From positions 33,220-97,219 of the IMG/VR virus record IMGVR_UViG_3300046533_000211: 64,000 bases of DNA. The stretch is one strand, 5' to 3'. The notes beneath the pieces were generated by a model. That model had not been told where the DNA came from, did no database searches, and was given only the letters and a program-made list of their open reading frames with translations. Made by a program: the position numbers and the translations under genes. Numbering within the stretch: position 1 is the first letter of the stretch; each line of letters begins with the position of its first letter. Source of the DNA: a virus (lineage: Duplodnaviria > Heunggongvirae > Uroviricota > Caudoviricetes). Below, piece by piece: positions 6,405 through 64,000 of this stretch.

Positions 6405-6631
6405 TGCCGGGAGCACCGGACCTCAAGCAGAGCAACCCACTCAAGAAGCTCGTCGCCGATGTGGTGTACGAGGCGGTCGCCAAGCTGGACTTCGCCTACA
6501 CGGCAAACGTCGGTCATGTGGACGTGCGCCGGGTGAGTGACCTGCGAACCGAGGTCACGATCACGCGGGCGGTAAACAGCGCCAACTTCCCGCCTCGCCA
6601 CTTCACCGTGCAGGTGATCGAGCACCAATGA
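6404..6631 (+). CDS. hypothetical protein (75 aa)
   Basis: ATG 6404 in frame of ORF 6281-6631, GAGGAG RBS. Confidence 0.5.
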   Translation: MPGAPDLKQSNPLKKLVADVVYEAVAKLDFAYTANVGHVDVRRVSDLRTEVTITRAVNSANFPPRHFTVQVIEHQ

Positions 6632-6708
6632 GCCTGCCGCAGGGGCGTGAACGTCACCGAGCTGAGCTATCTGCTTTCCTCAGCTGACAACGGATCGATG
6701 GATGGACC

Positions 6709-7221
6709 ATGACGATCAGAAACTCCGATCAGAGTCCTCCCCAGCGCCCCTGCGGCACCCCGCGACCCAGGAGCTGCCTTGTGCTCTGCCCCGTCTGTCT
6801 CCAGCCCGTCAAGACCAACAGCCGGGGTGAGGTCAAGCCGCACACCGACGCCCACTTCGGTGACTGCCCGATGGGTGGCCGGGTCGCCCCGCCTTGGGAT
6901 GAGGACAGCACCCGGCCTGCAGTCCAGGGCCGCTCCGGTGGTATCTGCGAATACTGCTCACAGCGGCTGGCCACCGACATGCACCACCGCAAGTCGCTCG
7001 GCGTCGGAGGCTTCTGGCAACCGGCCAACATCATCCACATCTGTCGGCCCTGTCACCGCTTCATCACTGAGCACCCGAACTGGGCCTGGTCGCTCGGGCT
7101 GATCGTGCGTTCCACAGAGGACCCGGCCAAGAGATCTGTCACCCGCGAGAACGGGGACATGTTCCAGCCCTCCGATGACGTGGCCCCACCGCTGCCCAAG
7201 AAGCATCGAAGGAAGCGATGA
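6709..7221 (+). CDS. HNH homing-type endonuclease
   Basis: CxxC...CEYCS...HHRKSLGVGG...NIIHICRPCHRFITEHP: HNH His-Asn-His zinc-finger nuclease motif. Confidence 0.75.
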   Translation: MTIRNSDQSPPQRPCGTPRPRSCLVLCPVCLQPVKTNSRGEVKPHTDAHFGDCPMGGRVAPPWDEDSTRPAVQGRSGGICEYCSQRLATDMHHRKSLGVGGFWQPANIIHICRPCHRFITEHPNWAWSLGLIVRSTEDPAKRSVTRENGDMFQPSDDVAPPLPKKHRRKR

Positions 7222-7310
7222 CCTGCAAACGCAAGCACAGCTACACCGTCCAGCGGCGAGGCAGGCGTCCGATATTGGTTTGCGTGAAGTGTGGGAAGGA
7301 GATCCGCTAG
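7218..7310 (+). CDS. zinc-ribbon peptide (30 aa, MTCKRKH...LVCVKCGKEIR)
   Basis: ATG 7218 overlaps HNH stop (ATGA); below ORF-track cutoff. Confidence 0.35.
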   Translation: MTCKRKHSYTVQRRGRRPILVCVKCGKEIR

Positions 7311-7314
7311 AGCC

Positions 7315-8604
7315 GTGACGAAGATCGTCCTGCACCCAAGCGCCCTGCCGCGCTTCCCCCAGGCCCCGTGCGAGCTACACGGGGCCTGGAAGTGGTGGCG
7401 GGTGCGAGTTCGCGGCGACATCATCCAGCGGTACGAGCCAAGCCGGGACGACATCCAGACAGCGATCCTGGAGTTCGAGGACGGCTACCCGGACACCGAG
7501 ATCACCGACCCGCCAGTCATGCGGGTGGTCACCGTGAACGAGATCCGTGACTTCGGCAGCCCGCTCAGATCAGCGATGCTGGACTCCAGCACCACCGAGG
7601 CCCTCATCGTCTGGAATGGCAGCCCCGGCCCGGACTGGCAGCCACTCCCCGGTAACACCTGTCGCCCTGGTGAGTACGAGATCGTCACGCTGTCCAACCG
7701 GAGCGAGGAGCGCAGCAGCTGGCGGGATGCCTACGAGGCCCGGTGGTCCTCAGACCAGCGGCGGCTCCAGTGGCCACCCCAGCGGGCCACCCAGCGCAGG
7801 CCACTCACCGTGGCCGAGGCCGAGCAGGCGCTCAGGGATGTCAGCAGGACCGTCCAGGTTTACCGGGGCCAACTGGACGACACGGTATTGGCATTCGAGC
7901 GATTCGAGGAAGCGGCCCGGATCAACCGGGAGCAAGTGCAGCAGCTCTACGCCGTGCCACCTGAGATCCTGCTGACACCACCACCCAGGCCCCGGCGTCA
8001 GCCGCTGCCGCCGCAGACCGCCCGTGTGGCCTGGAACCCAGACGGCTCCAGGACTTACACCTTCGACGCACCCACCGGCACCTACGACGCGGTGGTGTTC
8101 CAGGACGGCACCGAGGTTCCCTTCCCCACCATCACGATGGCCTCTCAGGGTCAGGTCATCGTGACGGTATCGGCTGACAACACGGTGATCCCCGACAGCC
8201 AGCCCCGGTTGCGGCGGGCACTCGGTGACCCCAACCGTGCGCGGTACGCCCGAGTGGATACCAGGTGGGAAGCCAGCCCTGCGCTGACTGATCCACGGTT
8301 GAACCCGGAGAAGAAGGTGCTGGACTCCATCGAGGAGCTGGTCAACGACCAGATCACTCGGGCGGCTCCCCGTGGTGTGCCACTGGACGACTACGACACC
8401 GACCGCTACCCGGAATGCAAGGAGTGCGGCCACGACTGGCACGGGCTGGAGTGCGACCCCGAGGACGGCTCCTGCGAGTGCATCAACACCGACTGGCTCG
8501 GACCTGACCAGAGGACCAAGCACCTAGACCTCGATGAGCCGACCCCGCTGGAGATCCAGCGCCCTGAGGGCACCCGGATTCGGAACCTGGACATGGACTG
8601 GTGA
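7315..8604 (+). CDS. hypothetical protein (about 430 aa; C-terminal CKECGH...C.C cysteine cluster)
   Basis: ORF 7291-8604; GTG 7315 has GGAAGGAG upstream (alternative GTG 7291). Confidence 0.6.
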   Translation: MTKIVLHPSALPRFPQAPCELHGAWKWWRVRVRGDIIQRYEPSRDDIQTAILEFEDGYPDTEITDPPVMRVVTVNEIRDFGSPLRSAMLDSSTTEALIVWNGSPGPDWQPLPGNTCRPGEYEIVTLSNRSEERSSWRDAYEARWSSDQRRLQWPPQRATQRRPLTVAEAEQALRDVSRTVQVYRGQLDDTVLAFERFEEAARINREQVQQLYAVPPEILLTPPPRPRRQPLPPQTARVAWNPDGSRTYTFDAPTGTYDAVVFQDGTEVPFPTITMASQGQVIVTVSADNTVIPDSQPRLRRALGDPNRARYARVDTRWEASPALTDPRLNPEKKVLDSIEELVNDQITRAAPRGVPLDDYDTDRYPECKECGHDWHGLECDPEDGSCECINTDWLGPDQRTKHLDLDEPTPLEIQRPEGTRIRNLDMDW

Positions 8605-8616
8605 TGGCCACACAGG

Positions 8617-8656
8617 AAGGCCCCGGACGCTGCGCCATGCAGGTCTCCGGGGCCTT
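8617..8656. terminator. bidirectional terminator hairpin (stem AAGGCCCCGGA/TCCGGGGCCTT; core identical to copy at 43455-43495)
   Basis: Inverted repeat 8617-8627/8646-8656, 13 nt after stop of 7315-8604, in a convergent gene gap. Confidence 0.6.
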
Positions 8657-8809
8657 GCTGCTGGGGGTAGTGGTCTGGTGTGCCGGTGACACCTGTACTG
8701 GGCTGACTTGTTTGGCTCAGCTAGACCTGCGGTCAGGTTCGACCACTACTTCCAACACCAGAAGCATATGCTAGCGCGCTACCAATTGGCAACCCACGTG
8801 GCGTGTGAT

Positions 8810-9433
8810 CTACACCTCAGCGTCGTACTCGCCGTATTCGATGATCAACCCAGGCACAGCCCCAGCCACCCGAGCGGCCACCGCGCGATGCCAGCAGGCC
8901 GGGTAGCGGCTCTTGTGGTCATCCCCGTCACGCTGGGTGAGCAGGACGACATCCTCCCCGGTCTCCTCGGCCTTCTTGACCTTGGCCTTGTACTGCAGGA
9001 CCAGGTTATTGACCAGGTTCGTGGCCACCTCGTACATCTCATCAAGCTCATCGACAATCGCGGCGGGGACTGCCGCCTCCTCACGCTCCATCCGCTGGAG
9101 CCGCCGAAGCAGGTTGGCCGATGTTTGCTGGGTCGGACGCTTCGGGCGGATGTCCTCGGGCAGGTCGCCAACCGTCGCCACACCATGGCGGGCCATCGCG
9201 CTGATCAGCTCCTGAGTCTCGGCGATCTTCAGGTGGGTGGCCTCAAGCTGGCGCTCCCACTGCTCGACCCGCAGGGACAGATCAGCGGCAGTTCGGGCGT
9301 CACGGCGCTCTGGCTCAGGCCGTTCGGGCAATCTGCCCCAGAGGTAATCAGCGAGCTGGGCCAGGCTGAACCCCAGGAAGATCCGTGTGGTGGCAAGCTC
9401 GGCACCAGTCATCAGGTCAGTCTGCGTGGGCAT
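8810..9433 (-). CDS. XRE-family HTH transcriptional regulator, candidate immunity repressor
   Basis: N-terminal HTH (MTGAELATTRIFLGFSLAQLADYL); ATG at 9433 with GGAAGGA RBS; divergent from a Cro/Xis-like HTH gene. Confidence 0.6.
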   Translation of the reverse strand: MPTQTDLMTGAELATTRIFLGFSLAQLADYLWGRLPERPEPERRDARTAADLSLRVEQWERQLEATHLKIAETQELISAMARHGVATVGDLPEDIRPKRPTQQTSANLLRRLQRMEREEAAVPAAIVDELDEMYEVATNLVNNLVLQYKAKVKKAEETGEDVVLLTQRDGDDHKSRYPACWHRAVAARVAGAVPGLIIEYGEYDAEV

Positions 9434-9530
9434 TCGATTCCTTCCAGGGACGGGTGGCCGGTTGCCATACCTTTGGACAGCATAGTCCAAGGCCTGGGCC
9501 TTTAATGCCTAGTGAGGTATGCTAATCGAC
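9434..9530. promoter_or_regulatory. divergent regulatory region (candidate genetic switch) carrying GCATAGTCCA and TAATGCCTAGTGAGGTA motifs; -10-like TATGCT 7 nt before ATG 9531 (leaderless-type)
   Basis: Motifs shared with 26360-26400 and 47340-47365; TATGCT at 9517-9522. Confidence 0.45.
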
Positions 9531-14780: not shown

Positions 14781-15161
14781 CTAGTCGTGCAATACCGGAT
14801 CGGGGTTGAGTGGGCGCACATCATCCTCGCTGATTCCGGCTAGATCAATCCGGCCCGCCTCGGGTAGCACCAGCGGATGTGCCAGCTTCGAGCAGGTGAT
14901 GAAGCCCGGACGGAAGGCATTGTGGCAGTAGATGATCCAGGCCCATTCTCCAGCAGGCACCATGATCGTCGCTCGGCCCAGCAGGATGCCGTGCTCATTA
15001 GTCTCCCAGGTGATCTGACCACGCTGGTACTCCAGCCCGAACATCGGCTCCTGACCATTGGACTGCACCGCACCCGCATGGGTGGGCCACACCACAAACG
15101 AGAGGATGCCCTCGCCAAGTGCGTCGAGCGGGGTCGACTGCTGGACCTCGATCTCGGTCAC
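14781..15161 (-). CDS. hypothetical tail-associated protein
   Basis: 126-aa ORF. Confidence 0.6.
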   Translation of the reverse strand: MTEIEVQQSTPLDALGEGILSFVVWPTHAGAVQSNGQEPMFGLEYQRGQITWETNEHGILLGRATIMVPAGEWAWIIYCHNAFRPGFITCSKLAHPLVLPEAGRIDLAGISEDDVRPLNPDPVLHD

Positions 15162-40556: not shown

Positions 40557-40739
40557 CGCTGACTCGATTCGGATCGGTGCCCAGTGGGCACGGGCTAGTT
40601 GCGAATCGGCCATCCCGTGCCGGGGTGTCCTCGATGCCGAATCGGCTCCCAGTGCCAGGGCTACCAAGTCAGATCTGGAGAGATCGTTGCCCCGGCGCGG
40701 CACCCTGTCAAGACGACACGCGCTGGATACCCTTCCGAC
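40557..40739. promoter_or_regulatory. divergent regulatory region between capsid and MTase genes with three about 23-bp direct repeats (GAATCGG.TCCCAGTGCC-like) and 15-bp palindrome GTGCCCAGTGGGCAC
   Basis: Repeats read at about 40566, 40603, 40639; palindrome 40580-40594. Confidence 0.45.
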
Positions 40740-41429
40740 ATGGTGATTCGGCAGTACGTGGACAAGCTGGAGGGCGACGACTTCCTGCATGCCCAGGCGA
40801 TGGCATGGCGCGACATCCGCGAGTTCATGGAGGAGGACATCATGCCGCTGGTTGCTCAGGCACCAGGCGGCTCTGTGAACGGGCCAGGGTCCAGCCTGGG
40901 TTGCACGGAACCTGTCGTCGCACAGCTGCCCGCACTGCTGCATCGCTACGACGTGAAGACGATGCTCGACGTGGGCTGTGGTGACTGGACCTGGATGCGC
41001 CACGTGGACCTGACCGGGATCGACTACACCGGATGGGACGTGGACATCACCCAGGTCAGTCGTAACCGGAGCAAGTTCCCCGCACACCGGTTCGACTCCG
41101 AGAACATCCTGACCGTGGAGGACATGCCGCGCTACGACGTGATCCTCTGCCGCGATGTGCTGGCTCACCTGCCCACCGAGCACATCCTGGCCGCACTGGC
41201 GAAGTTCAAGGCCAGCGGCTGCCGCTACCTGCTGGCGAGCACCTACCCAGGAGCCGACAACGCCTTCGACTACCGGCCCGAGCACTATGCCTGGCTCGGC
41301 TACTGCGAGCACCCGGTGGACCTCCAGGAACGCCCGTTCGCACTGGCCGAGATCGAGTGCATCGAGGAGACACCTGGACCAGGGGGCGTGATCGCACTCC
41401 CGCACGAACTCGGGCTGTTCCGGCTATGA
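40740..41429 (+). CDS. class I SAM-dependent methyltransferase
   Basis: LDVGCGDW motif I; ATG 40740 within TTG-initiated ORF 40599-41429. Confidence 0.7.
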   Translation: MVIRQYVDKLEGDDFLHAQAMAWRDIREFMEEDIMPLVAQAPGGSVNGPGSSLGCTEPVVAQLPALLHRYDVKTMLDVGCGDWTWMRHVDLTGIDYTGWDVDITQVSRNRSKFPAHRFDSENILTVEDMPRYDVILCRDVLAHLPTEHILAALAKFKASGCRYLLASTYPGADNAFDYRPEHYAWLGYCEHPVDLQERPFALAEIECIEETPGPGGVIALPHELGLFRL

Positions 41430-42340
41430 CCAGCACCGAGCAGCTCGCGAACTTCACGGTGAACTACGGCGCATTCGGCACCCGTGCAGATGCCAACGCC
41501 AACGGCAAGGCCGACGAGGTTCCCCTGCACGGCACGGCAGCCTTCATCGCCCAGCTGGACCGGCCAGCCCAGGCACCGACCTACGTGCCACCGGCAGGGG
41601 TGGACCTGGGCACCGTGGTGGGCTGCATCGACTCGGATGGCCTACTCAAGGACAAGGCAGGCGGCACGGTGGGCCTGCGGCTTCCTGCGAACGACCCGAT
41701 CCTGGCACTGGAGTCGCTCCCGTACCGGGTCAGCTTCAATCTGTTCGACCCCACCGGCAAGCACGTGGACTGGCCCGACACCACCTTCCTCGCCCCCGTG
41801 GATGACTCGCCTGTGGAGCTGAGCACGGCCATGCCCGTGCCTGGAGCCGTGGGTGTGGGCATCACTCGCGGGCAGGATGGCGCTCCCGTAGACGACGTAC
41901 AGCTCGACCCGAACGGCAATCTGGTGTTCTACGTGCAGGGTGTGCCCATCGGCCAGCCCATCGCGATCCCCGCAGGCGCAGGCGGCGGCCTGGTGGGGGC
42001 AGCCATCGAATACAACTACAGCAACGCCATCATCCCCGCCCCGAATGGTAACCAGTTCCGACTCAACAGCCTGGACATGACAGCCGTCACCGAGGGTTAC
42101 TTCCACGTCACCGCCGCCAACGGGTCCGATGTCACCCACGTCCTCGATATGTTCAAGGCGGGCGGTCGGTTCCTGCTCCAGGATCACAACGACAGCAGCA
42201 AGTACGCCGTGTTCGATGTCACCGGGCCGCCCCAGCTCGGCGCAGCCTTCCGCATCCTGCTGCTGGCCTGGGTTGAAGGTCCGGGCAGCTTCAACAACAG
42301 CCAGAAGACGATGATGATCATCGCCAAGTTCAGTGCATGA
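41426..42340 (+). CDS. hypothetical beta-rich protein (304 aa; possible structural/decoration protein)
   Basis: ATGA-coupled to MTase stop. Confidence 0.6.
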   Translation: MTSTEQLANFTVNYGAFGTRADANANGKADEVPLHGTAAFIAQLDRPAQAPTYVPPAGVDLGTVVGCIDSDGLLKDKAGGTVGLRLPANDPILALESLPYRVSFNLFDPTGKHVDWPDTTFLAPVDDSPVELSTAMPVPGAVGVGITRGQDGAPVDDVQLDPNGNLVFYVQGVPIGQPIAIPAGAGGGLVGAAIEYNYSNAIIPAPNGNQFRLNSLDMTAVTEGYFHVTAANGSDVTHVLDMFKAGGRFLLQDHNDSSKYAVFDVTGPPQLGAAFRILLLAWVEGPGSFNNSQKTMMIIAKFSA

Positions 42341-42471
42341 TGGCCGACCGGGACATCGAGCAGATCGCCGACGAGGACATGCGCTGCTCGGACTGCGGGA
42401 CGATCATCCGCTGGCCCCAGGAGCTGACCGTGGGGATCTGCCAGCACTGCCAGCCGTTCCACCAGGAGTGA
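42337..42471 (+). CDS. zinc-ribbon peptide (44 aa, CSDCG...CQHC)
   Basis: ATGATG at 42337 coupled to upstream gene; followed by A-rich gap. Confidence 0.4.
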   Translation: MMADRDIEQIADEDMRCSDCGTIIRWPQELTVGICQHCQPFHQE

Positions 42472-43135: not shown

Positions 43136-43360
43136 TCATCGGACCTCGATCCAGCACAGCGACCCATCATCCATAAGGGTGCTGGCGATCTCAGCCGCCA
43201 CCGCCTTGGTGCCCCACACAGAGGGCCGCACGCCGTTGAAGGACAGGAACGCCTGCCCCTGCTGGACGCCGAACCCACGGCCCTGGAAGTGGGCCAGCTT
43301 GCCATCCTCGACCCAGGAGATCTGGGCGATGTTGGCAGCCTTGCGGGTGGTGGTGGTCAT
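43136..43360 (-). CDS. hypothetical protein (74 aa, MTTTTRK...)
   Basis: GGAGGAGAC RBS upstream. Confidence 0.55.
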   Translation of the reverse strand: MTTTTRKAANIAQISWVEDGKLAHFQGRGFGVQQGQAFLSFNGVRPSVWGTKAVAAEIASTLMDDGSLCWIEVR

Positions 43361-43454
43361 GGTGTCTCCTCGGAGGAAGTGGACCGGCCTGGTGCCGATC
43401 TGATGATGACCCTAGCATAGATGCTAGTGGGGTGTCTATTACCCCAGACGGCAA

Positions 43455-43495
43455 GAGGCCCCCGGACGCTGCGCCATGCAGGTCTCCGGGGGCCT
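43455..43495. terminator. terminator hairpin (stem GAGGCCCCCGGA/TCCGGGGGCCTC), second copy of the 8617-8656 element
   Basis: 27-nt core CCCCGGACGCTGCGCCATGCAGGTCTCCGGGG identical at both sites; 13 nt after stop of 43508-44176. Confidence 0.6.
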
Positions 43496-43507
43496 CTGCT
43501 CAAGGGG

Positions 43508-44176
43508 TCAGGCCACCTCCTCCTCGGTCTCGATCCTGACCGCCTTGACGTGGGACAGGACAGTCTGCTCCTGGCCATTCCACTCAGCATGTTCCTTGAC
43601 CTTCCCGGTCAGGGTGGCCTGGTCGCCGCGCTCCAGACCGAACAGGCTCTCGCTGGAGCCGAACACCTTGACGACCTGGCCAGAGGTGGTCTCGGCGATG
43701 ATGAACATGGAGCTGGAGCGGTTCCAGCTGCCCGAGATGTACTTGGCAACCTTGATGGTGACGGCCAGGTCAGTGACCTTGGTGCCCTCCTCAGCAATGA
43801 AGCCCTGGACCAGGCTGGCGATGCGAGCAGCCTCAGCGGCACGCTCCTCAACGATGCGGGCCTGGTCAGCATGGAAGGCCGACTCGGCGTTCAGCCAGTT
43901 GCGGAGGGCCACGTGCTCAGCGATCTCAGCAGCGAAGTCCACACGGTAGGCAGCCTCACGGGCATGCTTGCGCACGGTGTTGACGGTCACGTTCTGGCGG
44001 CCATTGCCACCACACTGGAAGCAGACGCCGTTGTGGACCCACACGAAGCAGGTGTAGCCAGTGCCACCACAGCGACCGCAGTCAGTGGTGGTGAGGTCCT
44101 TGCCGGTCTTACCTGGGCAGGGATCGACGTAGCTGATAAGGGTGCGCTTGCCAAGAAGGCCGGTGTAGGTGGTCAT
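43508..44176 (-). CDS. protein with DnaJ-type CxxCxGxG zinc-finger pair and C-terminal OB-fold-like domain
   Basis: CGRCGGTG and CFQCGGNG motifs; ATG 44176 with GGAG RBS in conserved leader. Confidence 0.65.
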   Translation of the reverse strand: MTTYTGLLGKRTLISYVDPCPGKTGKDLTTTDCGRCGGTGYTCFVWVHNGVCFQCGGNGRQNVTVNTVRKHAREAAYRVDFAAEIAEHVALRNWLNAESAFHADQARIVEERAAEAARIASLVQGFIAEEGTKVTDLAVTIKVAKYISGSWNRSSSMFIIAETTSGQVVKVFGSSESLFGLERGDQATLTGKVKEHAEWNGQEQTVLSHVKAVRIETEEEVA

Positions 44177-44252
44177 GTGAACTCCTGAGGTCATGCCCTG
44201 GCCTCTTGCCTGGGCGTGACACCAGCATATGTTACCCCGCTAGCAATTGCAA
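44177..44252 (-). promoter_or_regulatory. promoter (-35 TTGCAA 44247-44252, 17-bp spacer, -10 TATGCT 44224-44229) plus about 40-nt conserved leader
   Basis: Minus-strand reading; leader core GCCCTGGCCTCTTGCCTGGGCGT identical to 47303-47325. Confidence 0.55.
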
Positions 44253-44280
44253 GCTCACGTAGCGGCTCGCTCCTTCAGCG

Positions 44281-44382
44281 CCCCAGCAGGGCTACAGCAG
44301 CCACGACGACACCTGAGAACACCAGGACCAGGACCAGGATTCCGAGCAGCAGCAGCCAGGGGAACGGCCCCTGCGATCCCAT
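44281..44382 (-). CDS. tiny membrane peptide (about 33 aa, GPFPWLLLLGILVLVLVFSGVVVAAVALLG)
   Basis: ATG at 44382; single hydrophobic span; below cutoff. Confidence 0.3.
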
Positions 44383-44385
44383 GGA

Positions 44386-44583
44386 CTACCCCGACTCGGT
44401 GGGCGGCAAGGTGTACATCACGTCATCGAGCCTGTTCTCGGCGGCATACAGCGCAGCCTGCTGGGCCTTGGCCGCTTCCTCGGTCGGGTGGCAGCCCGCA
44501 AGCCGATCTCCACTGGTCCCACCCACCACCCCGTAGGGCTTACTCGCTGGGCACCGGGCGTCCTTCTTGATGTTCCACGGCAT
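44386..44583 (-). CDS. hypothetical protein (65 aa)
   Basis: ORF. Confidence 0.5.
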   Translation of the reverse strand: MPWNIKKDARCPASKPYGVVGGTSGDRLAGCHPTEEAAKAQQAALYAAENRLDDVMYTLPPTESG

Positions 44584-44624
44584 GGCGATCAGTGTGGCAT
44601 GGCGCTACGCATTAACCTCGCAGG

Positions 44625-45194
44625 ATGAAGGTTGCCGACCTGGGCCGTGTCGAGAAGATCCCGATCAAGGACATCAAGCCGTACGAGAAGAACCCGCGCA
44701 AGATCCCCGAGCGGGCCATCCAGATCGTCGCTGAATCGCTGAAGCGGTTCGGGTGGCAGCAGCCCATCATCGTGGACAAGGAGCACGTCCTGATCGCAGG
44801 GCACACGCGGCTCCTGGCAGCCAGGCTGATCGGTGAGGAGATCGCTCCGGTGATCGTGGCCACCAAGCTGACCGAGGAGGAGTGCCGCGCCTACCGCATC
44901 GCCGACAACCGGACCCACGACTTCAGTGCCTGGGACTACCCGGAGCTGCTGAACCAGCTCGACCTGCTGGCAGGTGACTTCGCCGACGTGCTCGGGATCG
45001 CAGACTGGCAGAAGATCCTGGAGGAGTTCAAGGAGGGGGCCGGGGACGGCGGTGAGGGCCTGGGCAGCTCCGACCCACTGCCGGGGTTCCGTGTCTCGGT
45101 GGTGTTCGTCAGCAAGGAAGCAGCCGAGGCAGCGGAGCAGGAGCTGCTCGCCCTGGCAGGCATCATCGACGTGCCGATCCTGGGTACGACGTGA
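44625..45194 (+). CDS. ParB/Srx-like nuclease-domain protein
   Basis: ParB N-terminal domain motifs (KNPRKIPE..., GHTRLLAA). Confidence 0.7.
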   Translation: MKVADLGRVEKIPIKDIKPYEKNPRKIPERAIQIVAESLKRFGWQQPIIVDKEHVLIAGHTRLLAARLIGEEIAPVIVATKLTEEECRAYRIADNRTHDFSAWDYPELLNQLDLLAGDFADVLGIADWQKILEEFKEGAGDGGEGLGSSDPLPGFRVSVVFVSKEAAEAAEQELLALAGIIDVPILGTT

Positions 45195-45748
45195 AGCCGT
45201 CAGATCTGGGGCCGGTCCAGCTGATGGAGCTGTCCACCGTGCGCCCCTTCCCGACGAACCCCAGGATCATCCCCGACAAGGCAGTGGACATCGTCGCAGA
45301 GTCGATCAGACTGTTCGGCTGGCAGCAGCCGCTGGTGGTGGACACCGAGATGGTGCTCGTCGCCGGTCACACGCGGCTGCTGGCGGCGCGCAAGCTGGGC
45401 CTCAGGAAGGCACCCGTGGTCATTGCCGAGTCGCTTACCCAGGCTGAGATCGACGCCTACCGGATCGCGGACAACCGCACCCATGACTTCACCAGCTGGG
45501 ACTACGACGGCCTCAAGGGCGAGCTAGGCGAGCTGGATGAGCGGTTCGATGACGTGCTGGCAGTGGATGAGTGGCCAGACATCCCCGACGAGGAGGACTT
45601 CAACCTGGACATCCCCGATGACGTGCGGGCCGATGCCGAGGGTGGCTTCATCGTGGTGCTGACCTTCGAGGACAAGAAGGCGGCAGCCGCTGTCCAGCAG
45701 GACATCCTCGGTATCGAGGGGGTGCTCGATGTCCGGTACCGGCGCTGA
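45191..45748 (+). CDS. ParB/Srx-like nuclease-domain protein (tandem paralog)
   Basis: Same motifs (TNPRIIPD..., GHTRLLAARKLG); ATGA-coupled. Confidence 0.7.
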   Translation: MKPSDLGPVQLMELSTVRPFPTNPRIIPDKAVDIVAESIRLFGWQQPLVVDTEMVLVAGHTRLLAARKLGLRKAPVVIAESLTQAEIDAYRIADNRTHDFTSWDYDGLKGELGELDERFDDVLAVDEWPDIPDEEDFNLDIPDDVRADAEGGFIVVLTFEDKKAAAAVQQDILGIEGVLDVRYRR

Positions 45749-46733
45749 GTCCTTCATCTGCAGCCCCGAGCAGCGATCCGGCCTGCTGGTGGCGGTGCTC
45801 AGTGGCCGCAGGCCCCAGCTCGCAGAGCGCCCCACACGCAAGCTCCTGGGCGCACTCAAGGACTTCGGCGCTGCGGACGTGGTGTGGGTGGTGCGGGAGT
45901 CCGATGCCGCTGGCTACGAGCAGGATGAGCACGCGATGGTGGTCTACTCAGACGACTGGTGTGAGGAGTACGCAGCGGCGCACTGGCTCAAGCCAGGACC
46001 ACCTCCCGAGCAGTATCCCCGGCTGTTCTGCGGGCGCGAGGTGGCCAGCCTAGAGGCCGAGAAGCGGGGGTGCTGGGGGGTGCTCCAGCTCGATGACAAC
46101 ATCGTCAAGCTGGTGGTGGCCCGCAACGTCCTGAGCGGGATCGAGGCGGCTCGGATCAACGGCGGGATGGCCCTGTTCGCGGACCTGCTCGCCGCTGTCA
46201 CGCTGTCCACCAACGGCAGGTTCGTGGGTGCTGCGCTCACTTCCATACCGTCCTCGAAGATGGTGGTGGCCAGGGCGGGCTTCCCGTACTCGCTGTTCAT
46301 CGAGCAGGTTGGCAAGGGCCGGGAGCACTACTACGGCCCCATCGAGGAGGACATCATCCAGGCCTACCAGTACGGCAACCGGGCTGATGTCTCGGACTCC
46401 ACCGCTCTGCTGGTGCCCTCGATCCGGTACTGCAAGGAGTACACCAGCAAGGGCGGCATGCGTGCTTTCTACGACGGGACCAGAGCCGTCCCGCTGGCCC
46501 GGATGTTCCCTGAGACTGCCAAGGTCACCATCAAGCGCGCCCACTCCAACGGCCAGGGTGGGCCAAGGGTGTTCCACCACATGAGCGCAGGGGCGATCCG
46601 CAATCCGATGATCGTCCACGACCGCGAGCTGTTCGGCAGGGCCAAGCGCAGGGTCGAGCAGCTCCTCATCGAGTGGCGTGCACTCTCGGTGAAATACAAC
46701 CAGGCCAAGATCGACAAGCGGGTCAAGGCATGA
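45729..46733 (+). CDS. hypothetical protein, 334 aa, function unknown (Rossmann-like N-terminus?)
   Basis: Clean ORF overlapping ParB paralog end by 20 nt. Confidence 0.6.
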   Translation: MSGTGAESFICSPEQRSGLLVAVLSGRRPQLAERPTRKLLGALKDFGAADVVWVVRESDAAGYEQDEHAMVVYSDDWCEEYAAAHWLKPGPPPEQYPRLFCGREVASLEAEKRGCWGVLQLDDNIVKLVVARNVLSGIEAARINGGMALFADLLAAVTLSTNGRFVGAALTSIPSSKMVVARAGFPYSLFIEQVGKGREHYYGPIEEDIIQAYQYGNRADVSDSTALLVPSIRYCKEYTSKGGMRAFYDGTRAVPLARMFPETAKVTIKRAHSNGQGGPRVFHHMSAGAIRNPMIVHDRELFGRAKRRVEQLLIEWRALSVKYNQAKIDKRVKA

Positions 46734-46774
46734 AGAAGCCCCAGCCGGGTGGGCTGGGGCTTCAGGTGTGGGGT

Positions 46775-46927
46775 CAGCGGCGGGGGCGACCGTGTGGCCG
46801 GTAGCCAATCTTGACCTTGATGGCCTCAATCTCTGCGGCTAGCTTGGCCTTCTCATCGGCGGTCATCTCGCGGGCCTGCACGAAGGTCGCAGTGCTGTGG
46901 TTGGCTACTCGTCCGGCTTCGGTTCTC
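46775..46927 (-). CDS. small protein (about 50 aa, coiled-coil)
   Basis: ATG about 46927 preceded by TATGAT -10-like and CATAGTC/TAGCAATT motifs; coordinates +/-1. Confidence 0.35.
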
Positions 46928-47026
46928 ATGGCTCCACCATATCATAGTCGGGTAGCAATTAATCTGTGCTCTGCCTCACATGAACGAAGGCCCCGCCTGG
47001 GGGGGCGGGGCCTTCGGGGGCTGGGT

Positions 47027-47286
47027 TCAGATGGACAGGGCAAGCGCACCAGCGAGATGGGCGAACAGGTGCATCACGTCACCATTGCGGAAGTCGATCA
47101 TGACGAGCAGCTTCTTGATCTCAGCCTGCTCAGAGGCGGGGGCCTCCTTGATCTTGGCCAGCACAGAGCCGAGCGGGATCACATTGAGGGTGCCATTGGG
47201 GCTGGTCTTCTCAAAGATGTGCTCGGTGTTCAGGCCCTTCTCGTCAACCAGGGTGTCAAGCCAGCGAGTGAAGGAAGTGGTGGTCA
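47027..47286 (-). CDS. hypothetical protein (86 aa, MTTTSFTRW...)
   Basis: ATG 47286 with GGAG RBS in conserved leader. Confidence 0.6.
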
Positions 47287-47363
47287 TGTCTGCTCCTGAG
47301 ATTCGTGCCCTGGCCTCTTGCCTGGGCGTACCCCAATTAAAGCATAGCTGGCTAGGCATTGCA
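47287..47363 (-). promoter_or_regulatory. promoter (-35 TTGCAA 47358-47363, 17-bp spacer, -10 TTTAAT 47335-47340) plus conserved leader; second copy of the 44177-44252 cassette
   Basis: Spacer contains CTAGGCATT and GCATAG motifs. Confidence 0.55.
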
Positions 47364-47366
47364 AGC

Positions 47367-47732
47367 TCACGGAGCGGTGCGCTCCCCAAGGTCGTGGGCG
47401 AACGCAGGCAGGCCAGGAGCATGCGGGTCGCGGTGCTTCTCACCATCGACCCGGAACCACTCCATCCGCTCATGCTGCTCAATGCCGGGTATGCACTCAT
47501 CCATCAGCCAGTCCAGGAACTGCTCGCGGCTGGTGATGCGCTCGGGCACGGGGAAGATCGGCCCCGCCTCGAAGGTGCCGTCCGGGTTGCAGGCATCCGT
47601 CCCGGTGGCCCAGATGATGACATCCGTACCCACGCCGGGATGGATCAGCCAGCCAGGCCGGTACGTCACACCATGCAGCCAGGCAGCGATGGTCGGTGCG
47701 TCAGGCACGACGCAGGTACGCCAGCCCCTCAT
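47367..47732 (-). CDS. hypothetical protein (about 120 aa)
   Basis: ORF 47367-47786; start choice uncertain, overlaps protease 3' end. Confidence 0.4.
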   Translation of the reverse strand: MRGWRTCVVPDAPTIAAWLHGVTYRPGWLIHPGVGTDVIIWATGTDACNPDGTFEAGPIFPVPERITSREQFLDWLMDECIPGIEQHERMEWFRVDGEKHRDPHAPGLPAFAHDLGERTAP

Positions 47733-49341
47733 TGATGTTGCGGATGTTCGGGATGCCCGTCTTGTCGCGGAACTCCCGCAGCGCACGGTTCACATTGATC
47801 GGACCAGCCCCGAAGGACAGCTCCTCTTCGTGCTCGTCCTCGTCGCTCGGGTTGAGGTTGGCATCGCCGCCCTCGTAGTCGCTCATGGCATCCTTCGCAC
47901 TCGGCGAACGCTTCTTCTTCTCGTCCTTCTTGTCGCCATCCTCAGGCTCGCGGCCACCGCCCTTGGCGAACGGCTTGGCCTTCTCGCCTGGACCGAAGGC
48001 ACGGTCCTCGTTGTCACCGAAGACATCCTCATCGTCCCCATAGGGATCGTTGTAGTCGGACTTCTGCTCCTCCTCGCCCTCGGCCCCTTCGTTGGGGTCC
48101 TCCGGGTCCGGTTCCTGATCGGCCTGGCGCTGTTGGGCAGTGCGTGCACCCTCGGACCACACGTACGGGAACATGCCGCCCAGCCGGGCATCACCAGGCG
48201 TCGGCGAGCTGCCCTGCTGGATCGAGCTGGCTGGCGAGGACGGCAGCGGGGTGCGGGTGCCGTCGTAGAGCACCGCGACCAGCGTTGTCCCACCGTCCAC
48301 ATTGCGGACCATATCGACGTGGCTCACACCGGCCATGATCTTGTCCGTGTCCAGGATGCCGGTCGGCGCGCGCTTGGTCCCAGCAGGCTCGGCACCGCGC
48401 ACCTTGTGGCCGTGCTTGGCCATCGCAGCGGCTGCCCGCTTGCGGATCTGCTCCAGCTGCTGTGGCGTGTAGCCACTCTGCACCTGGCTCAGCGCAGTCC
48501 AGCTGGCCACGACGTGCTTGGCATCGATGGGGAACCTGCGCACACCGTCCCCGTCGCCTGCCTGCTGACGGCTCGCACTCAAGTGGCCGGGGTCGGCGAA
48601 GTGGGTCGCACTCTGGCCCTCGCCATCAGCCGCGCACTCCGGGCACTGGCCGTCCGTGAGGTCACCGTGCTCATGCTCGGCCCGCCAGGCGCGCTGGTCC
48701 ATCAGGGTCGAGACGGCCAGCGTGGCGCGATGCACCAGGTCTGGATCGAGGCGGCGCAGCTCCACCAGCTCGGCCTGGCTCAGTGAGGCCATCGCCTCGA
48801 CACCGTTCTGCAGCACGGCTCGGGTGCCGGGGTTCATCCCGTAGTTGACTACGCTCACGTCGCCCTTGTGCAGGCTGACCTCAGTGATCGTGCGATTCGT
48901 GTAGTTGTCGTCCCACACCTGATCCTTGACCCGGAAGGCGAAGGACATCTCATCGATGTCGCCCCGCTTCATCTTGGGCACCAGCCCCTGGACATCGGGG
49001 TCGGACGGATCCAGGTTGGCCCGGATGAGCAGGCCGTGCTGGTCCACGCCCAGCTTCATCGTGCCGCTCTTGGTCCGCGCCAGCGGCAGCCCCTCATGGT
49101 TCAGCAGGAGCTGTACGTCCGGGTCGGACCGCAGGGTCTGGTCGAATGCCTGGCGGGCCAGCGTCTCCACCCAGCCACCCCGCTCGGGACCACCGAAGGC
49201 GTCGTAGGGGGTGAACGTGGCGGCGTACCCCGTCAGGATGAACTCGCCGGTCGCCTGGTCCTCACGGAACTCGAACCGGGTGGATGCCTTGCGCTCCTCA
49301 CGCACATCGAGAATGCGGGCACGGCTTCGGTGATCGGTCAT
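47701..49341 (-). CDS. capsid maturation (prohead) protease, HK97 family, with long acidic C-terminal extension
   Basis: ATG 49341 with GGAGG RBS; FEFREDQATGEFILTGYAATFTPYDAFGG protease-domain signature. Confidence 0.75.
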   Translation of the reverse strand: MTDHRSRARILDVREERKASTRFEFREDQATGEFILTGYAATFTPYDAFGGPERGGWVETLARQAFDQTLRSDPDVQLLLNHEGLPLARTKSGTMKLGVDQHGLLIRANLDPSDPDVQGLVPKMKRGDIDEMSFAFRVKDQVWDDNYTNRTITEVSLHKGDVSVVNYGMNPGTRAVLQNGVEAMASLSQAELVELRRLDPDLVHRATLAVSTLMDQRAWRAEHEHGDLTDGQCPECAADGEGQSATHFADPGHLSASRQQAGDGDGVRRFPIDAKHVVASWTALSQVQSGYTPQQLEQIRKRAAAAMAKHGHKVRGAEPAGTKRAPTGILDTDKIMAGVSHVDMVRNVDGGTTLVAVLYDGTRTPLPSSPASSIQQGSSPTPGDARLGGMFPYVWSEGARTAQQRQADQEPDPEDPNEGAEGEEEQKSDYNDPYGDDEDVFGDNEDRAFGPGEKAKPFAKGGGREPEDGDKKDEKKKRSPSAKDAMSDYEGGDANLNPSDEDEHEEELSFGAGPINVNRALREFRDKTGIPNIRNINEGLAYLRRA

Positions 49342-49363
49342 CTCGTCTACCTCCTGGCGGGGA

Positions 49364-50728
49364 TTATCCCCGCGCCTTGCCGTTTGGACCGCCCGACACA
49401 CTCGGAGCGGATGTGGATGGGGTGACTTGGGGAGTGGACTCGCCACCGGCCACCGGCTTCCCAGGCACAGCCTTGGTCGGCGTCTTAGGCGGCTCCTCCG
49501 GTCTGGCTGGCTCGGGCGTCTGGGAGATCGGACTCGGCGCGCTCGCAGGTTTGACCAGCATGCCGTAGGGGTCAGGCTGCATCCCGAGCGGGACGAAGTT
49601 CGCAGGCTGCAGTGGCTCGTCGCCGAACTCCAGCGGCTCCATCTCCTCCTGGGCACGCACCTCGTTCGGGGTGATCCAGAAGGCCTTGAGCGCCTTCTCG
49701 TAGGCCTCGAAGCGGGTCTTGATGTCGCCCTTCAGCAACGCGGAGTAGTCGAACTGGACATACTGCCCAGGTGGCAGCATCCTGCTGAAAACAGACTCGA
49801 TGCACGCCGTCCAGGCCCGGAAGGTGTAGGTCACGGCACCGATGGTGATCTGCTCGACACCCGTGCCCCACGCGGTCGTCTCCTTGGTGTCGCCGATCAG
49901 GATGGGCGGCACTCCATACATGATGCAGATCTCGGAGCGCTGGAACTGCCGCGTCTCCAGGAACTGGCTTTCGTTCGGGGCGATGGACAGCGGGGCGAAC
50001 TTGAATCCACCCGTGAGGACAGCGGGCAGCTTGCGGCCACCGTGGGACTGTATCCAGTCCTTCTGCGCGCGGATGACCGCCCTCTCGTCAAGGTCCTGCT
50101 CGGTCGTCAGCATGCCGCTCGGGTTGGCGCTCTCCTTGAAATATCTATAGCCGTACTCCTCTGACGCCAGGCTCATCCCCACCGCGACAGCTGCCTGGTG
50201 GATCGGACTCAGGCCCCATGGCTCACCCGGCATCGTGAAGCGGCGGATGTGGCAGATGTTGCCGCTCGGGATCTGCTCGCCCATCACCCGATAGACCGGA
50301 TCAAACCAGCGCAGGATGTCGGTTCGCCGCTCCAGGAACACCGAATCGGGGTGCAGGGGCATGATCGCGTTCGGCAGCTGGGTCTTGTCGTCATATCCGG
50401 TGATCAGGCCGTAGTAATTGCCCCTCAGGGCCAGCGAGGCCACCATCGACCACTTGTACTGGAACAGATCGAACCCTGGCCACGGCTCCTGGACCAGAGC
50501 AGGCTGAGGGCGCACCTCCTTGGGCACACCCTTGGCGTCGCGGGTGTAAACCTTCCAGGGCAGGCTCGCGATGGTGTCGGCCAGCAGCCGCACGCAGGCA
50601 TAGACGGTCATCACTGACATGGCCCTATGGACACCCACGTAGTCATCCAGCACACCCACCGCAGGCGGCGGCACGAACGAGCTACTGGTCAGCGTGCGCT
50701 GCTCCATCGCCCCGGCACGCGGGGACAT
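49364..50728 (-). CDS. portal protein
   Basis: HK97-type portal-like body; start among 50728/50707/GTG 50812 uncertain. Confidence 0.7.
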   Translation of the reverse strand: MSPRAGAMEQRTLTSSSFVPPPAVGVLDDYVGVHRAMSVMTVYACVRLLADTIASLPWKVYTRDAKGVPKEVRPQPALVQEPWPGFDLFQYKWSMVASLALRGNYYGLITGYDDKTQLPNAIMPLHPDSVFLERRTDILRWFDPVYRVMGEQIPSGNICHIRRFTMPGEPWGLSPIHQAAVAVGMSLASEEYGYRYFKESANPSGMLTTEQDLDERAVIRAQKDWIQSHGGRKLPAVLTGGFKFAPLSIAPNESQFLETRQFQRSEICIMYGVPPILIGDTKETTAWGTGVEQITIGAVTYTFRAWTACIESVFSRMLPPGQYVQFDYSALLKGDIKTRFEAYEKALKAFWITPNEVRAQEEMEPLEFGDEPLQPANFVPLGMQPDPYGMLVKPASAPSPISQTPEPARPEEPPKTPTKAVPGKPVAGGESTPQVTPSTSAPSVSGGPNGKARG

Positions 50729-63546: not shown

Positions 63547-63599
63547 GTGCCGATCCCCCTCTGCCGATCCCGGCCTGGTGCCGAGCTGCTGTTGATAGT

Positions 63600-64000
63600 A
63601 CTCCGGTGTCAACTAATGGCGTGGCAAATTGGGGGTGCGTGTCTCCGGTCGGTGCGGGCCCGATACCTGAGCTGCGCAGATGCTGGAATTGCCATGTCCG
63701 TGCGGCAAACATCAAGCGGCCCACGTGGCGTGCGATGTGCGTGCAGCATGAAGTGTGAAGCGTATAGCGATCTGCTACATGGTGCGTGAATGTTGTTGTG
63801 CCATATACGTTTTCACGTGCACGTGCACGTGGGATGCTATGCGGCATATACGTTTTCAAAACCATCGTTGACCAGCGACGATGCCGCGATCCGTCGCGTT
63901 TATGCAGGTCAGGCCGTTATTTGGAGGGGGTTTGGGCCGGTCAGCCCCCGTTTTTCGCTAGGTTCAGGGGGGAGATACCAAGACGCCCATCTGTGGTTCT
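63600..64000. promoter_or_regulatory. right-end non-coding control region: CCCACGTGGCGTG element, triple CACGTG repeat, two ATATACGTTTTCA direct repeats, hairpin + T-tract near 63920-63955
   Basis: No credible ORFs; lower GC; repeats read directly. Confidence 0.5.

Follow-up and report, generated by a model that had tools for sequence, protein, structure and literature searches.

Why does a phage place nearly the same promoter and leader in front of two unrelated genes? The question is raised by a 64-kb stretch of DNA, hereafter the window, which is a portion of a 97-kb metagenome contig from the Joint Genome Institute (JGI) and belongs to a tailed phage with a G+C content of about 65%. In the window, two genes on the minus strand, here called gene 1 (43508..44176) and gene 2 (47027..47287), are each preceded by a copy of a cassette with a predicted promoter, an untranslated leader and a Shine-Dalgarno sequence. 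The leader folds into a small hairpin that recurs, with compensatory changes in its stem, in front of other genes of this phage and its relatives, and it is with this hairpin and its cassette that we are concerned here.

A predicted promoter and its leader in two copies

The near-identity of promoter and leader at the two sites, which an earlier note on this DNA had described, is confirmed and reaches further than was thought. A 23-mer, GCCCTGGCCTCTTGCCTGGGCGT, occurs exactly at two sites on the plus strand (44195-44217 and 47307-47329) with a chance expectation of 0 in 100 shuffles, and no further copies were found in the window even with up to three mismatches. When aligned on the minus strand, the two sites match over approximately 105 nt (44168-44273 versus 47279-47385). 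Cassette copy 1 (44168..44273, minus strand) is located upstream of gene 1 and is identical in an independent contig of 1045 nt (L002); cassette copy 2 (47279..47385, minus strand), which runs from GGAGCG to ATGACCACC, is located upstream of gene 2. The copies have the same orientation and are offset by 3112 bp.

The alignment falls into segments of different conservation. Block A, GGAGCGnnCCGCTnCGTGAGCTTGCAATnnCTAGC, is identical at 30 of 35 positions, and its 21-nt core is present twice where no occurrence is expected. The middle stretch of 21 nt, which includes the -10 hexamer, has 8 identical positions, whereas block B, ACGCCCAGGCAAGAGGCCAGGGCA, is identical at all 24 positions and is followed by CTCAGGAG, 5 nt and ATGACCACC. 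The mismatches are clustered (13 of 21 positions in the middle versus 0 of 24 in block B; Fisher p = 3e-6), the homology extends through CTCAGGAG as far as ATGACCACC and ends there, and the distance from the -35 hexamer to the leader is equal at both sites.

The predicted promoters have the geometry that had been noted previously. In copy 1, the hexamer read as -35 is TTGCAA (44247..44252, minus strand), and 17 nt past it is the -10 hexamer TATGCT (44224..44229, minus strand), which fits the TANNNT pattern of the mycobacterial SigA -10 element (PMC6448022). In copy 2, TTGCAA (47359..47364, minus strand) is followed after 17 nt by TTTAAT (47336..47341, minus strand), which overlaps a TATGCT at 47341-47346. 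The Shine-Dalgarno sequence AGGAG is placed 5 nt before the start codon in both copies, at 44182..44186 (minus strand) before ATG 44176 in copy 1 and at 47293..47297 (minus strand), within CTCAGGAG, before ATG 47287 in copy 2; the start of gene 2 had been given as 47286 and is here corrected to 47287. It had also been remarked that both proteins start with MTT. Both genes do begin with ATGACCACC, but this phage has many MTT starts (those at 43360 and 15224 are examples), and the shared start therefore says little.

A short hairpin 5' of the -35 hexamer, GGAGCG-CAC-CGCTCC, was seen at site 2 only, being weaker at site 1 and absent in a related contig, L087. Exact 23-, 21- and 19-mers from the repeat gave 0 matches in IMG/VR, 1 in the GTDB genomes and 12 in the JGI metagenomes; the GTDB and JGI matches have unrelated flanks and were dismissed as chance matches rather than true relatives. 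No duplicated promoter-leader cassettes were found in the 21-kb stretches of seven relatives.

The leader hairpin and its family

The core of the leader folds as GCCC-A-GGC-AAGAG-GCC-A-GGGC, and structure prediction, which the earlier note had proposed as a check, returns this hairpin as the minimum-energy fold of both leaders. The copy 2 hairpin (47307..47327, minus strand) lies within the exact repeat and scores 34.2 bits with the covariance model described below; the copy 1 hairpin (44195..44215, minus strand) is identical to it. In both cassettes the first paired base is 8 nt past the -10 hexamer, hence approximately 2 nt past the predicted start, and the ribosome-binding site is 9-10 nt 3' of the hairpin and is not sequestered. 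The hairpins are not terminators because no U-run follows them: they are succeeded by ACGAAUCUCAGGAG and AUGACCUCAGGAG, in contrast to an intrinsic terminator or attenuator, and a terminator scan made no call. A search with Rfam 15 gave no match at the gathering score in the whole window, and between 43000 and 47600 there were only chance-level matches (E of at least 2.8), none of them on the leaders. We also considered CCWGG in the hairpin arms as a sign of methylation or restriction avoidance and rejected it, with CCAGG and CCTGG at observed/expected ratios of 0.96 and 0.99 respectively.

The earlier note knew of two sites only and missed two diverged copies of the hairpin in the window. Searching the window and approximately 1 Mb of related loci for the core GGCAnnAGGCC, we identified a family with the core GGC-A[A/C]NAG-GCC in at least 13 leaders, four of which are in the window and at least nine in seven related metagenomic contigs (window 47322, 44210, 43396 and 63582; L087 1099 and 1905; L088; L019/L215; L204; L157; L016; two in L037). 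In the window the core GGCAMSAGGCC occurs 6 times versus 0.5 expected. The third window hairpin, GAUC-GGC-ACCAG-GCC-GGUC (43382..43400, minus strand; 32 bits), is located after a -10 hexamer TATGCT (43414-43419) and before GAGGAG and the ATG at 43360 of a gene for 74 amino acids (43136-43360). The fourth, CUC-GGC-ACCAG-GCC-GGG (63569..63585, minus strand; 29.3 bits), comes after TACTAT (63595-63600) and before ATG 63546, the start of the first gene in a long leftward run, and is itself preceded by a non-coding region of approximately 400 nt.

The position of the hairpin is similar across the family. In 10 of 13 members the stem begins 7-13 nt past the end of a -10-like hexamer (L087 1905, L088 379 and L037 2304 yielded no such hexamer), a spacing which predicts 0-6 unpaired nucleotides at the 5' end when starts are placed from the hexamers. 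The predicted start is 1-3 nt from the hairpin in 9 of 11 members inspected by eye, the exceptions being L019 (about 13 nt) and window 43396 (about 6-7 nt). From the end of the stem it is 5-12 nt to the ribosome-binding site across the family, and 18-25 nt to the start codon in 12 of the 13 aligned leaders, with 40 nt in the weak member L037 2304. The repeat is thus tied to start codons, and the possibility raised by the earlier note, that it might be a dispersed repeat with no relation to them, is not what we find.

The inner stem GGC/GCC and loop positions 1, 4 and 5 (A1, A4 and G5) are invariant in the 13 aligned leaders, and the two middle loop bases are only ever AG or CC, with both forms present within one genome. 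The outer five pairs vary yet remain complementary (GCCC/GGGC, GGGC/GCCC, GCC/GGC, GAU/GUC, GGU/GCC and GACC/GGUC), and the central stem position can be A.A, A-U, U-A, C-G, G-C or C.A. A clear example of compensatory change is GCCC/GGGC in the window versus GGGC/GCCC in the leader of gene 2 in L087. Over the whole stem of the 13 leaders 84.6% of the cells are paired versus 70.6% in shuffled alignments (score 0.361 versus 0.142; 0 of 500 shuffles), and over the five variable pairs of the 11 distinct variants 74.5% are paired versus 52.1% (score 0.604 versus 0.243; 0 of 500), figures that are indicative and not probabilities, since the members share a fixed core pattern and common descent, which inflates the statistics. 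When the partners were shifted by 1-3 columns as a control, at most 45.5% of the cells were paired and the score was at most 0.22.

We then made a covariance model from the 13 leaders. In the window it picked out the four known sites and no others, and in relatives it added two members outside the training set. These are L157 5176-5204, with the loop AAAAG, and L060 1390-1418, with the loop AACAG and an inner stem GGC/GUC that contains a G.U pair; in each, a -10-like hexamer precedes the hairpin and a ribosome-binding site with a start codon follows it, and the two widen the family to phages with a portal protein that is only about 60% identical. A loose pattern of hairpin, Shine-Dalgarno sequence and ATG in IMG/VR gave mostly chance hits among the matches listed, only L157 and L204 being real, and a pattern of promoter plus hairpin gave 12 loci, of which 3 are real; across IMG/VR this combination occurs only in contigs of the present phage group.

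Because its geometry is fixed and its outer stem has undergone compensatory changes, we conclude from these alignments that the leader hairpin is selected as a folded single strand, most simply as RNA. This agrees with the earlier suggestion that the conserved leader is a shared element at the RNA level and not just part of a shared promoter, and the at least 13 leaders, the covarying outer stem and the two members found by the model place that suggestion on a broader footing.

The hairpin is not bound to one family of genes. In L016 it is placed in front of a gene 1 homolog that is only 45% identical. The idea that the leader travels with the gene family was rejected, since a gene 1 homolog in L003 with 75% identity has an unrelated A+T-rich upstream region. 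A gene for 206 amino acids with the same type of leader in L019 was considered as a gene 1 homolog and rejected, the identity being 17%.

Probable recombination between cassette copies

Both cassettes are located within an island bounded by the head protease gene (47701-49656) and the capsid gene (39114 to approximately 40400), and a close relative, L087, has the same genes in another arrangement. The nucleotide identity between L087 and the window is 90.3% for gene 1, 92.7% for gene 2 and 91.0% for a glycosyltransferase gene. In L087 the order is protease gene, a gene for 111 amino acids, cassette, gene 1, terminator, cassette, gene 2 and the reverse-oriented glycosyltransferase gene. The contigs L088 and L089, from two other samples, confirm this order, and the gene 2 homolog P0157 is present on all three contigs, each from a different sample. 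In the window, gene 2 directly follows the homolog of the 111-amino-acid gene, and the unit of cassette and gene 1 is located 3.1 kb away, beyond a block of ParB and glycosyltransferase genes, a placement confirmed by contig L002. The sequence past the stop codon of gene 1 also differs between the window and L087.

The four cassettes in the window and L087 share CGCT-CGTGAGCTTGCAAT, the -10 position, CAGGAG and CATGACCACC. All four show the sequence pattern of TTGCAA, 17 nt and TATGCT or TTTAAT, the -35 hexamer being invariant, and both cassettes in L087 have TTTAAT at the same position as the -10 hexamer of copy 2. In L087, the gene 1 hairpin is GCCCAGGC-AAGAG-GCCTGGTC and the gene 2 hairpin is GGGC-A-GGC-ACCAG-GCC-A-GCCC, whereas gene 2 in the window has a hairpin of the gene 1 type. 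The leader of gene 2 has therefore been swapped for another, and the junction falls between the ribosome-binding site and ATGACCACC.

The simplest reading of the two gene orders is that recombination between cassette copies deleted, moved or inserted the gene 1 unit. Such recent recombination would explain why, of the four cassettes, the two copies in the window are closest to each other. The earlier note had read the conserved leader as a shared regulatory RNA element; recent recombination accounts for the exact identity of the two copies better than constraint on its own, since the hairpin of gene 2 in L087 is a different variant.

An open reading frame upstream of cassette copy 2 (47367-47786, minus strand) has as its stop codon a TGA inside the cassette (CCGTGAGC), and its homolog of 111 amino acids in L087 ends before the cassette, so that the C-terminal residues are cassette-encoded in the window only.

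Possible functions of the cassette

The explanation toward which we lean, with modest confidence, is that of a portable expression cassette, in which a promoter is joined to a 5'-terminal stem-loop leader that shields the mRNA and in which the cassette copies also act as exchange patches. A housekeeping-type promoter (TTGCAA, 17 nt, TTTAAT or TATGCT) would start the transcript, the leader would open with the stem-loop approximately 2 nt past the predicted start, and a strong ribosome-binding site would follow 9-10 nt later, before the start ATGACCACC. The cassette could thereby supply accessory genes in the island between the protease and capsid genes with transcription of their own. The stem-loop would protect the mRNA from decay that depends on the 5' end (pyrophosphate removal, RNase E and RNase J) and allow short single-gene transcripts to survive until they are translated, and the invariant A1, A4 and G5 with the closing pairs hint at additional recognition by a protein or an RNA. 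The cassette copies, finally, would be homology patches for the exchange, deletion or movement of genes.

There are precedents for the proposed protection. Hairpins at the 5' end shield bacterial mRNAs from 5'-end-dependent decay in the ompA, papA, aprE and ermC leaders (reviewed in PMC3997798), and the hairpin described here is likewise predicted to lie at the 5' end of the transcript. The known stabilizers are individual structures without a shared sequence, whereas here the loop and closing pairs are conserved across genes and phages. Considering all the evidence, we judge stabilization to be the most likely single role of the hairpin, but since the invariant loop and closing pairs exceed what a stabilizer needs, recognition by a protein or an RNA is a serious alternative.

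Several observations weigh against a stabilizing, portable cassette. An invariant loop is unneeded for a general stabilizer, and the folding energies are ordinary in comparison to shuffled sequences (z of -0.5 to -2.2 over the members; about -1.5 to -2.2 for the two cassette leaders). An alternative fold wins for the members at 63.6 kb in the window and in L016, the former hairpin (63569..63585) not being the minimum-energy fold of the 45-nt stretch tested, and a mid-stem mismatch is present in 4 of the 11 variants (A.A in three, C.A in one). The transcript starts are placed from -10-like hexamers only, a simple sigma-70 consensus scan called no promoter between 41000 and 48500, and the TTTAAT of copy 2 does not have the A at the second position of TANNNT. 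To these may be added the inflation of the covariation figures mentioned above, the fact that the direction and mechanism of the rearrangement are deduced from two arrangements only, and that the sequence examined constitutes 64 kb of the 97-kb source contig.

It is possible, though we think it clearly less probable, that the hairpin chiefly docks a phage-encoded or host RNA-binding regulator, either an antiterminator similar to N acting on boxB or a translational repressor or activator that couples the transcripts into a regulon, and that protection of the 5' end is incidental. Such a regulator would account for the fixed A1, A4, G5 and three closing pairs in the 13 leaders while the outer stem is free to change, for middle loop bases that are either AG or CC and coexist in one genome, and for a motif that fronts both the long leftward operon at 63.5 kb and the island genes, as in a regulon. 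Small hairpins with a 5-nt loop are also boxB-like in general appearance, and in the two members found by the model the middle loop bases are AA and AC. But we identified no protein that might bind the hairpin, the loop does not resemble GNRA and has no conserved stretch similar to boxA adjoining it, and the ribosome-binding site is left uncovered, 5-12 nt downstream of the hairpin. Read-through would be unneeded, since each island gene has its own predicted promoter directly after the preceding terminator. A bolder version, which we regard as improbable if worth stating, is that a phage-encoded RNA-binding regulator recognizes the hairpin and, in a lineage of uncultured actinobacterial phages, unites the main leftward operon and the accessory genes of the head-gene island post-transcriptionally, with AAGAG and ACCAG as specificity classes, and that the cassette in addition moves genes between genomes.

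The remaining explanations fare less well. The two copies might be no more than a recently duplicated promoter region, a scar of recombination in which the hairpin has no function at the RNA level. We consider this unlikely: the copies are exact over 24 nt while L087 differs, as a recent event predicts, and the folding energies are near those of shuffled sequence, but the hairpin architecture is kept before unrelated genes in relatives with portal proteins that are 60-70% identical, and neutral scars would not keep the complementarity seen in the compensatory stem changes or the fixed position. It also seems unlikely that the hairpins, rather than being 5'-terminal, are sites at which an enzyme such as RNase III or RNase E processes longer polycistronic mRNAs, as happens to the early mRNA of T7. 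RNase III sites contain internal loops, which the internal stem mismatch (A.A in three variants, C.A in one) resembles, and the hairpins are located between genes of the same orientation. Yet a -10-like hexamer is present 7-13 nt upstream in 10 of 13 members and a -35 hexamer 17 nt further in the four cassettes, a stem of 7-8 bp is short for RNase III, and terminator-like hairpins precede the promoters. Least likely of all, the conserved 21-mer could be a double-stranded DNA dyad operator bound by a phage repressor just past the start site, for although an imperfect inverted repeat at approximately +3 to +23 is in the classic place of an operator and the inverted repeats near starts in the extended start-associated sequences (ESAS) of Cluster K were judged likelier to be DNA sites (PMC3203893), the outer arms here change but stay complementary and the non-symmetric center A[A/C]NAG is conserved, which is what one would expect of a folded single strand.

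Comparison with known phage cassettes and repeats

From its sequence and layout, we class the cassette as one that appears to behave like a PeSL or ESAS-type regulatory cassette yet belongs to neither group. The PeSLs are promoter-early stem-loop cassettes of T4-type phages (Arbiol et al., 2010, PMC2839356; Comeau et al., 2014, PMC4122927). They resemble the cassette described here in combining sigma-70-like -35 and -10 hexamers at a 17-nt spacing, a stem-loop, and the Shine-Dalgarno sequence and start codon of the gene that follows (PMC2839356; PMC4122927). Both types are direct-orientation repeats in variable regions next to small genes of unassigned function, and both mark the borders of segments that have been inserted, deleted or displaced between close relatives, represented here by the gene 1 unit in the window and in L087. 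However, the stem-loop of the PeSL precedes the promoter and is interpreted as a terminator, whereas the conserved stem-loop here is downstream of it, in the leader. The host (probably an actinobacterium here), the phage lineage and the sequences are unrelated, and there are only two full and two partial cassettes in 64 kb. Excised mini-circles have been shown for the PeSLs, whereas the present cassette is known from sequence alone. To our knowledge, gene-shuffling cassettes of promoter and stem-loop have been documented only in T4-type phages.

The start-associated sequences (SAS) and ESAS of Cluster K mycobacteriophages, to which no function has been assigned (Pope et al., 2011, PMC3203893), are similar in another respect. 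These are actinophage repeats located a few nucleotides before the start codons (mostly ATG) of non-structural genes in different families; they contain AGGAG with conserved flanking bases that are not explained by pairing to rRNA, and the ESAS adds an imperfect inverted repeat just upstream. The SAS are placed 3-7 bp before start codons with 11-19 copies per Cluster K genome (PMC3203893), whereas here there are 4 copies per 64 kb, each with a predicted promoter of its own. The 13-bp SAS consensus, GGGATAGGAGCCC, has 0 matches at up to two mismatches in the 64 kb. The arms of the ESAS are 17 bp with spacers of 4-13 nt, in contrast to the 7-8 nt arms, fixed 5-nt loop and unrelated sequence found here, and the variation among ESAS does not support RNA pairing, whereas the variation among the present hairpins does.

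Other comparisons concern the hairpin and the gene unit separately. The boxB element of the lambda nut sites is a small hairpin with a 5-nt loop that occurs in early phage leaders in a few copies per genome and is bound by N. The hairpin described here is similar in size, loop length, location in leaders and copy number, but its loops (AAGAG, ACCAG, AAAAG and AACAG) are not GNRA-like, there is no boxA, it is predicted to open the transcript, and every unit is served by a predicted promoter that follows the previous terminator. No N protein was recognized among the window proteins, most of the small ones having no family, although no dedicated search for an arginine-rich antiterminator of the N type was made. 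Morons, a term of Hendrix and colleagues, are reportedly units of promoter, gene and terminator inserted between conserved phage genes. Genes 1 and 2 fit this description in that each has a predicted promoter and a terminator-like hairpin and is situated between head genes that are closer together in relatives. The difference is that a moron is defined by its gene content and autonomy, whereas here several units share one leader motif.

The SAS and ESAS repeats have been known since 2011 without a mechanism, and the element described here joins their theme with that of the PeSLs in an unrelated lineage. What it adds to those cases is the combination of compensatory changes, a compact 21-nt motif with an invariant loop and a pair of relatives with about 91% identity that catches a gene unit in two positions. 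Should the portable expression cassette prove to be the true explanation, it would help to explain how accessory genes that lie among late genes come to be expressed independently and by what route they pass from one phage genome to another, and it would make available a compact, portable expression part for hosts with a high G+C content.

The two genes and their probable terminators

Gene 1 (43508..44176, minus strand) encodes a protein of 222 amino acids with a Cys-rich N-terminus that belongs to phrog_4095 and has a weak match to PF27659, and gene 2 (47027..47287, minus strand) encodes a protein of 86 amino acids in phrog_6004, of which P0157 is a homolog with 95% identity. Neither has an assigned function, and their homologs in mycobacteriophages are mostly located towards one end of the genome record.

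Both genes are followed by candidate terminators. A G+C-rich hairpin read as GAAGGCCCCGCC...GGCGGGGCCTTC (46986..47015, minus strand) after gene 2 is probably a terminator; it has no T-run, and the consensus scan made no call. The hairpin after gene 1 (43454..43497, minus strand), also probably a terminator, has a long loop, and an exact second copy of its 28-nt center is present at 8623-8650. The terminator that follows gene 1 in L087 is a different one. The 28-mer, CCGGACGCTGCGCCATGCAGGTCTCCGG (plus strand, 8623-8650 and 43462-43489), is the center of a hairpin of approximately 45 nt and represents a second dispersed repeat. One copy of this hairpin closes a plus-strand gene (7291-8604) and the other closes gene 1, which is therefore flanked by two different repeated elements.

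In the flank of the gene 1 terminator, the 11-mer GGCAAGAGGCC is also present on the plus strand (43450-43460), so that the 3' end of the gene 1 mRNA would hold an exact complement of the core of its own leader hairpin. Pairing of the 5' and 3' ends was considered and set aside as probably due to chance, the complement being missing in the terminator copy at 8.6 kb and in the terminator of L087.

The gene island and its phage

Most genes between approximately 10 kb and 63.5 kb are on the minus strand. The portal protein is about 48% identical to the portal proteins of Cluster J mycobacteriophages, and the head genes are those of a Cluster J-like siphovirus; the host is probably an actinobacterium. 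The cultured-phage collection contains no close DNA relative for the 4.1-kb region, nor did a search in sensitive mode find one for the cassette. The window proteins that were scanned include no integrase, and there are no tRNA genes in the window.

The island contains a reverse-oriented block (44625-46733) that encodes two ParB_N proteins and a TAGT-type glycosyltransferase. Relatives retain this block, and the small genes that surround it vary among them; in L017 and L018 the protease gene runs straight to the reverse-oriented glycosyltransferase gene. To judge by its gene content, this island may be a hotspot for DNA modification or anti-defense. In the window it encodes the two ParB_N proteins, the TET-associated-type glycosyltransferase and a SAM methyltransferase (40599-42471 and 44625-46733, plus strand). 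In L016, genes for GTP cyclohydrolase I, a radical SAM protein and PTPS (6630-8884) suggest synthesis of 7-deazaguanine, and in L018 there is a gene similar to Acb2/Tad1 (14869-15102). Elsewhere in the relatives, intein-type domains (PF14528, PF01079 and PF14890) are present within the portal proteins of some phages (P0078, P0084, P0089 and P0094), and arrays of tRNA-like repeats are present in others (L022, 3080-7201, and L035, 2189-6453).

Other promoter-like and probably leaderless sites

The non-coding stretch at 63600-64000, which precedes the fourth hairpin, contains the short repeat AAAACGTATATG twice and three consecutive copies of CACGTG, and it may serve in control or as an origin. 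Another promoter-like sequence, GCCAATTGGTAGCGCGCTAGCATATGCT (8760-8795, minus strand), is nearly identical to the promoter of the hairpin leader in L019 and is not followed by an open reading frame. The stretch after it ends at the hairpin at 8615-8660, and the whole is located just downstream of a helix-turn-helix-like gene for 207 amino acids (8810-9433). A non-coding transcript of approximately 135 nt from about 8615-8795 (minus strand) is possible.

A 10-nt motif, AATKSSTASY (for example AATTGCTAGC), occurs at 6 intergenic sites versus 0.55 expected, a count that is not independent because the motif was defined after the sites had been seen. The sites are 8778-8787, 44239-44248, 44604-44613, 46951-46960 and 47351-47360 on the minus strand and 9504-9513 on the plus strand. 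The motif is always 4 or 9 nt upstream of a -10-like hexamer and precedes promoters in L016-L019, L157 and L204 as well; it may extend the promoter or be a site for a regulator.

Two small genes on the minus strand show a different start layout from that of the cassettes. The ATG codons at 46929 (a gene for 51 amino acids) and 44583 (a gene for 65 amino acids) are located 5-11 nt past -10-like hexamers and have no ribosome-binding site, and their counterparts in L017-L019 have the same start layout. Judging from this spacing, both genes are probably leaderless.

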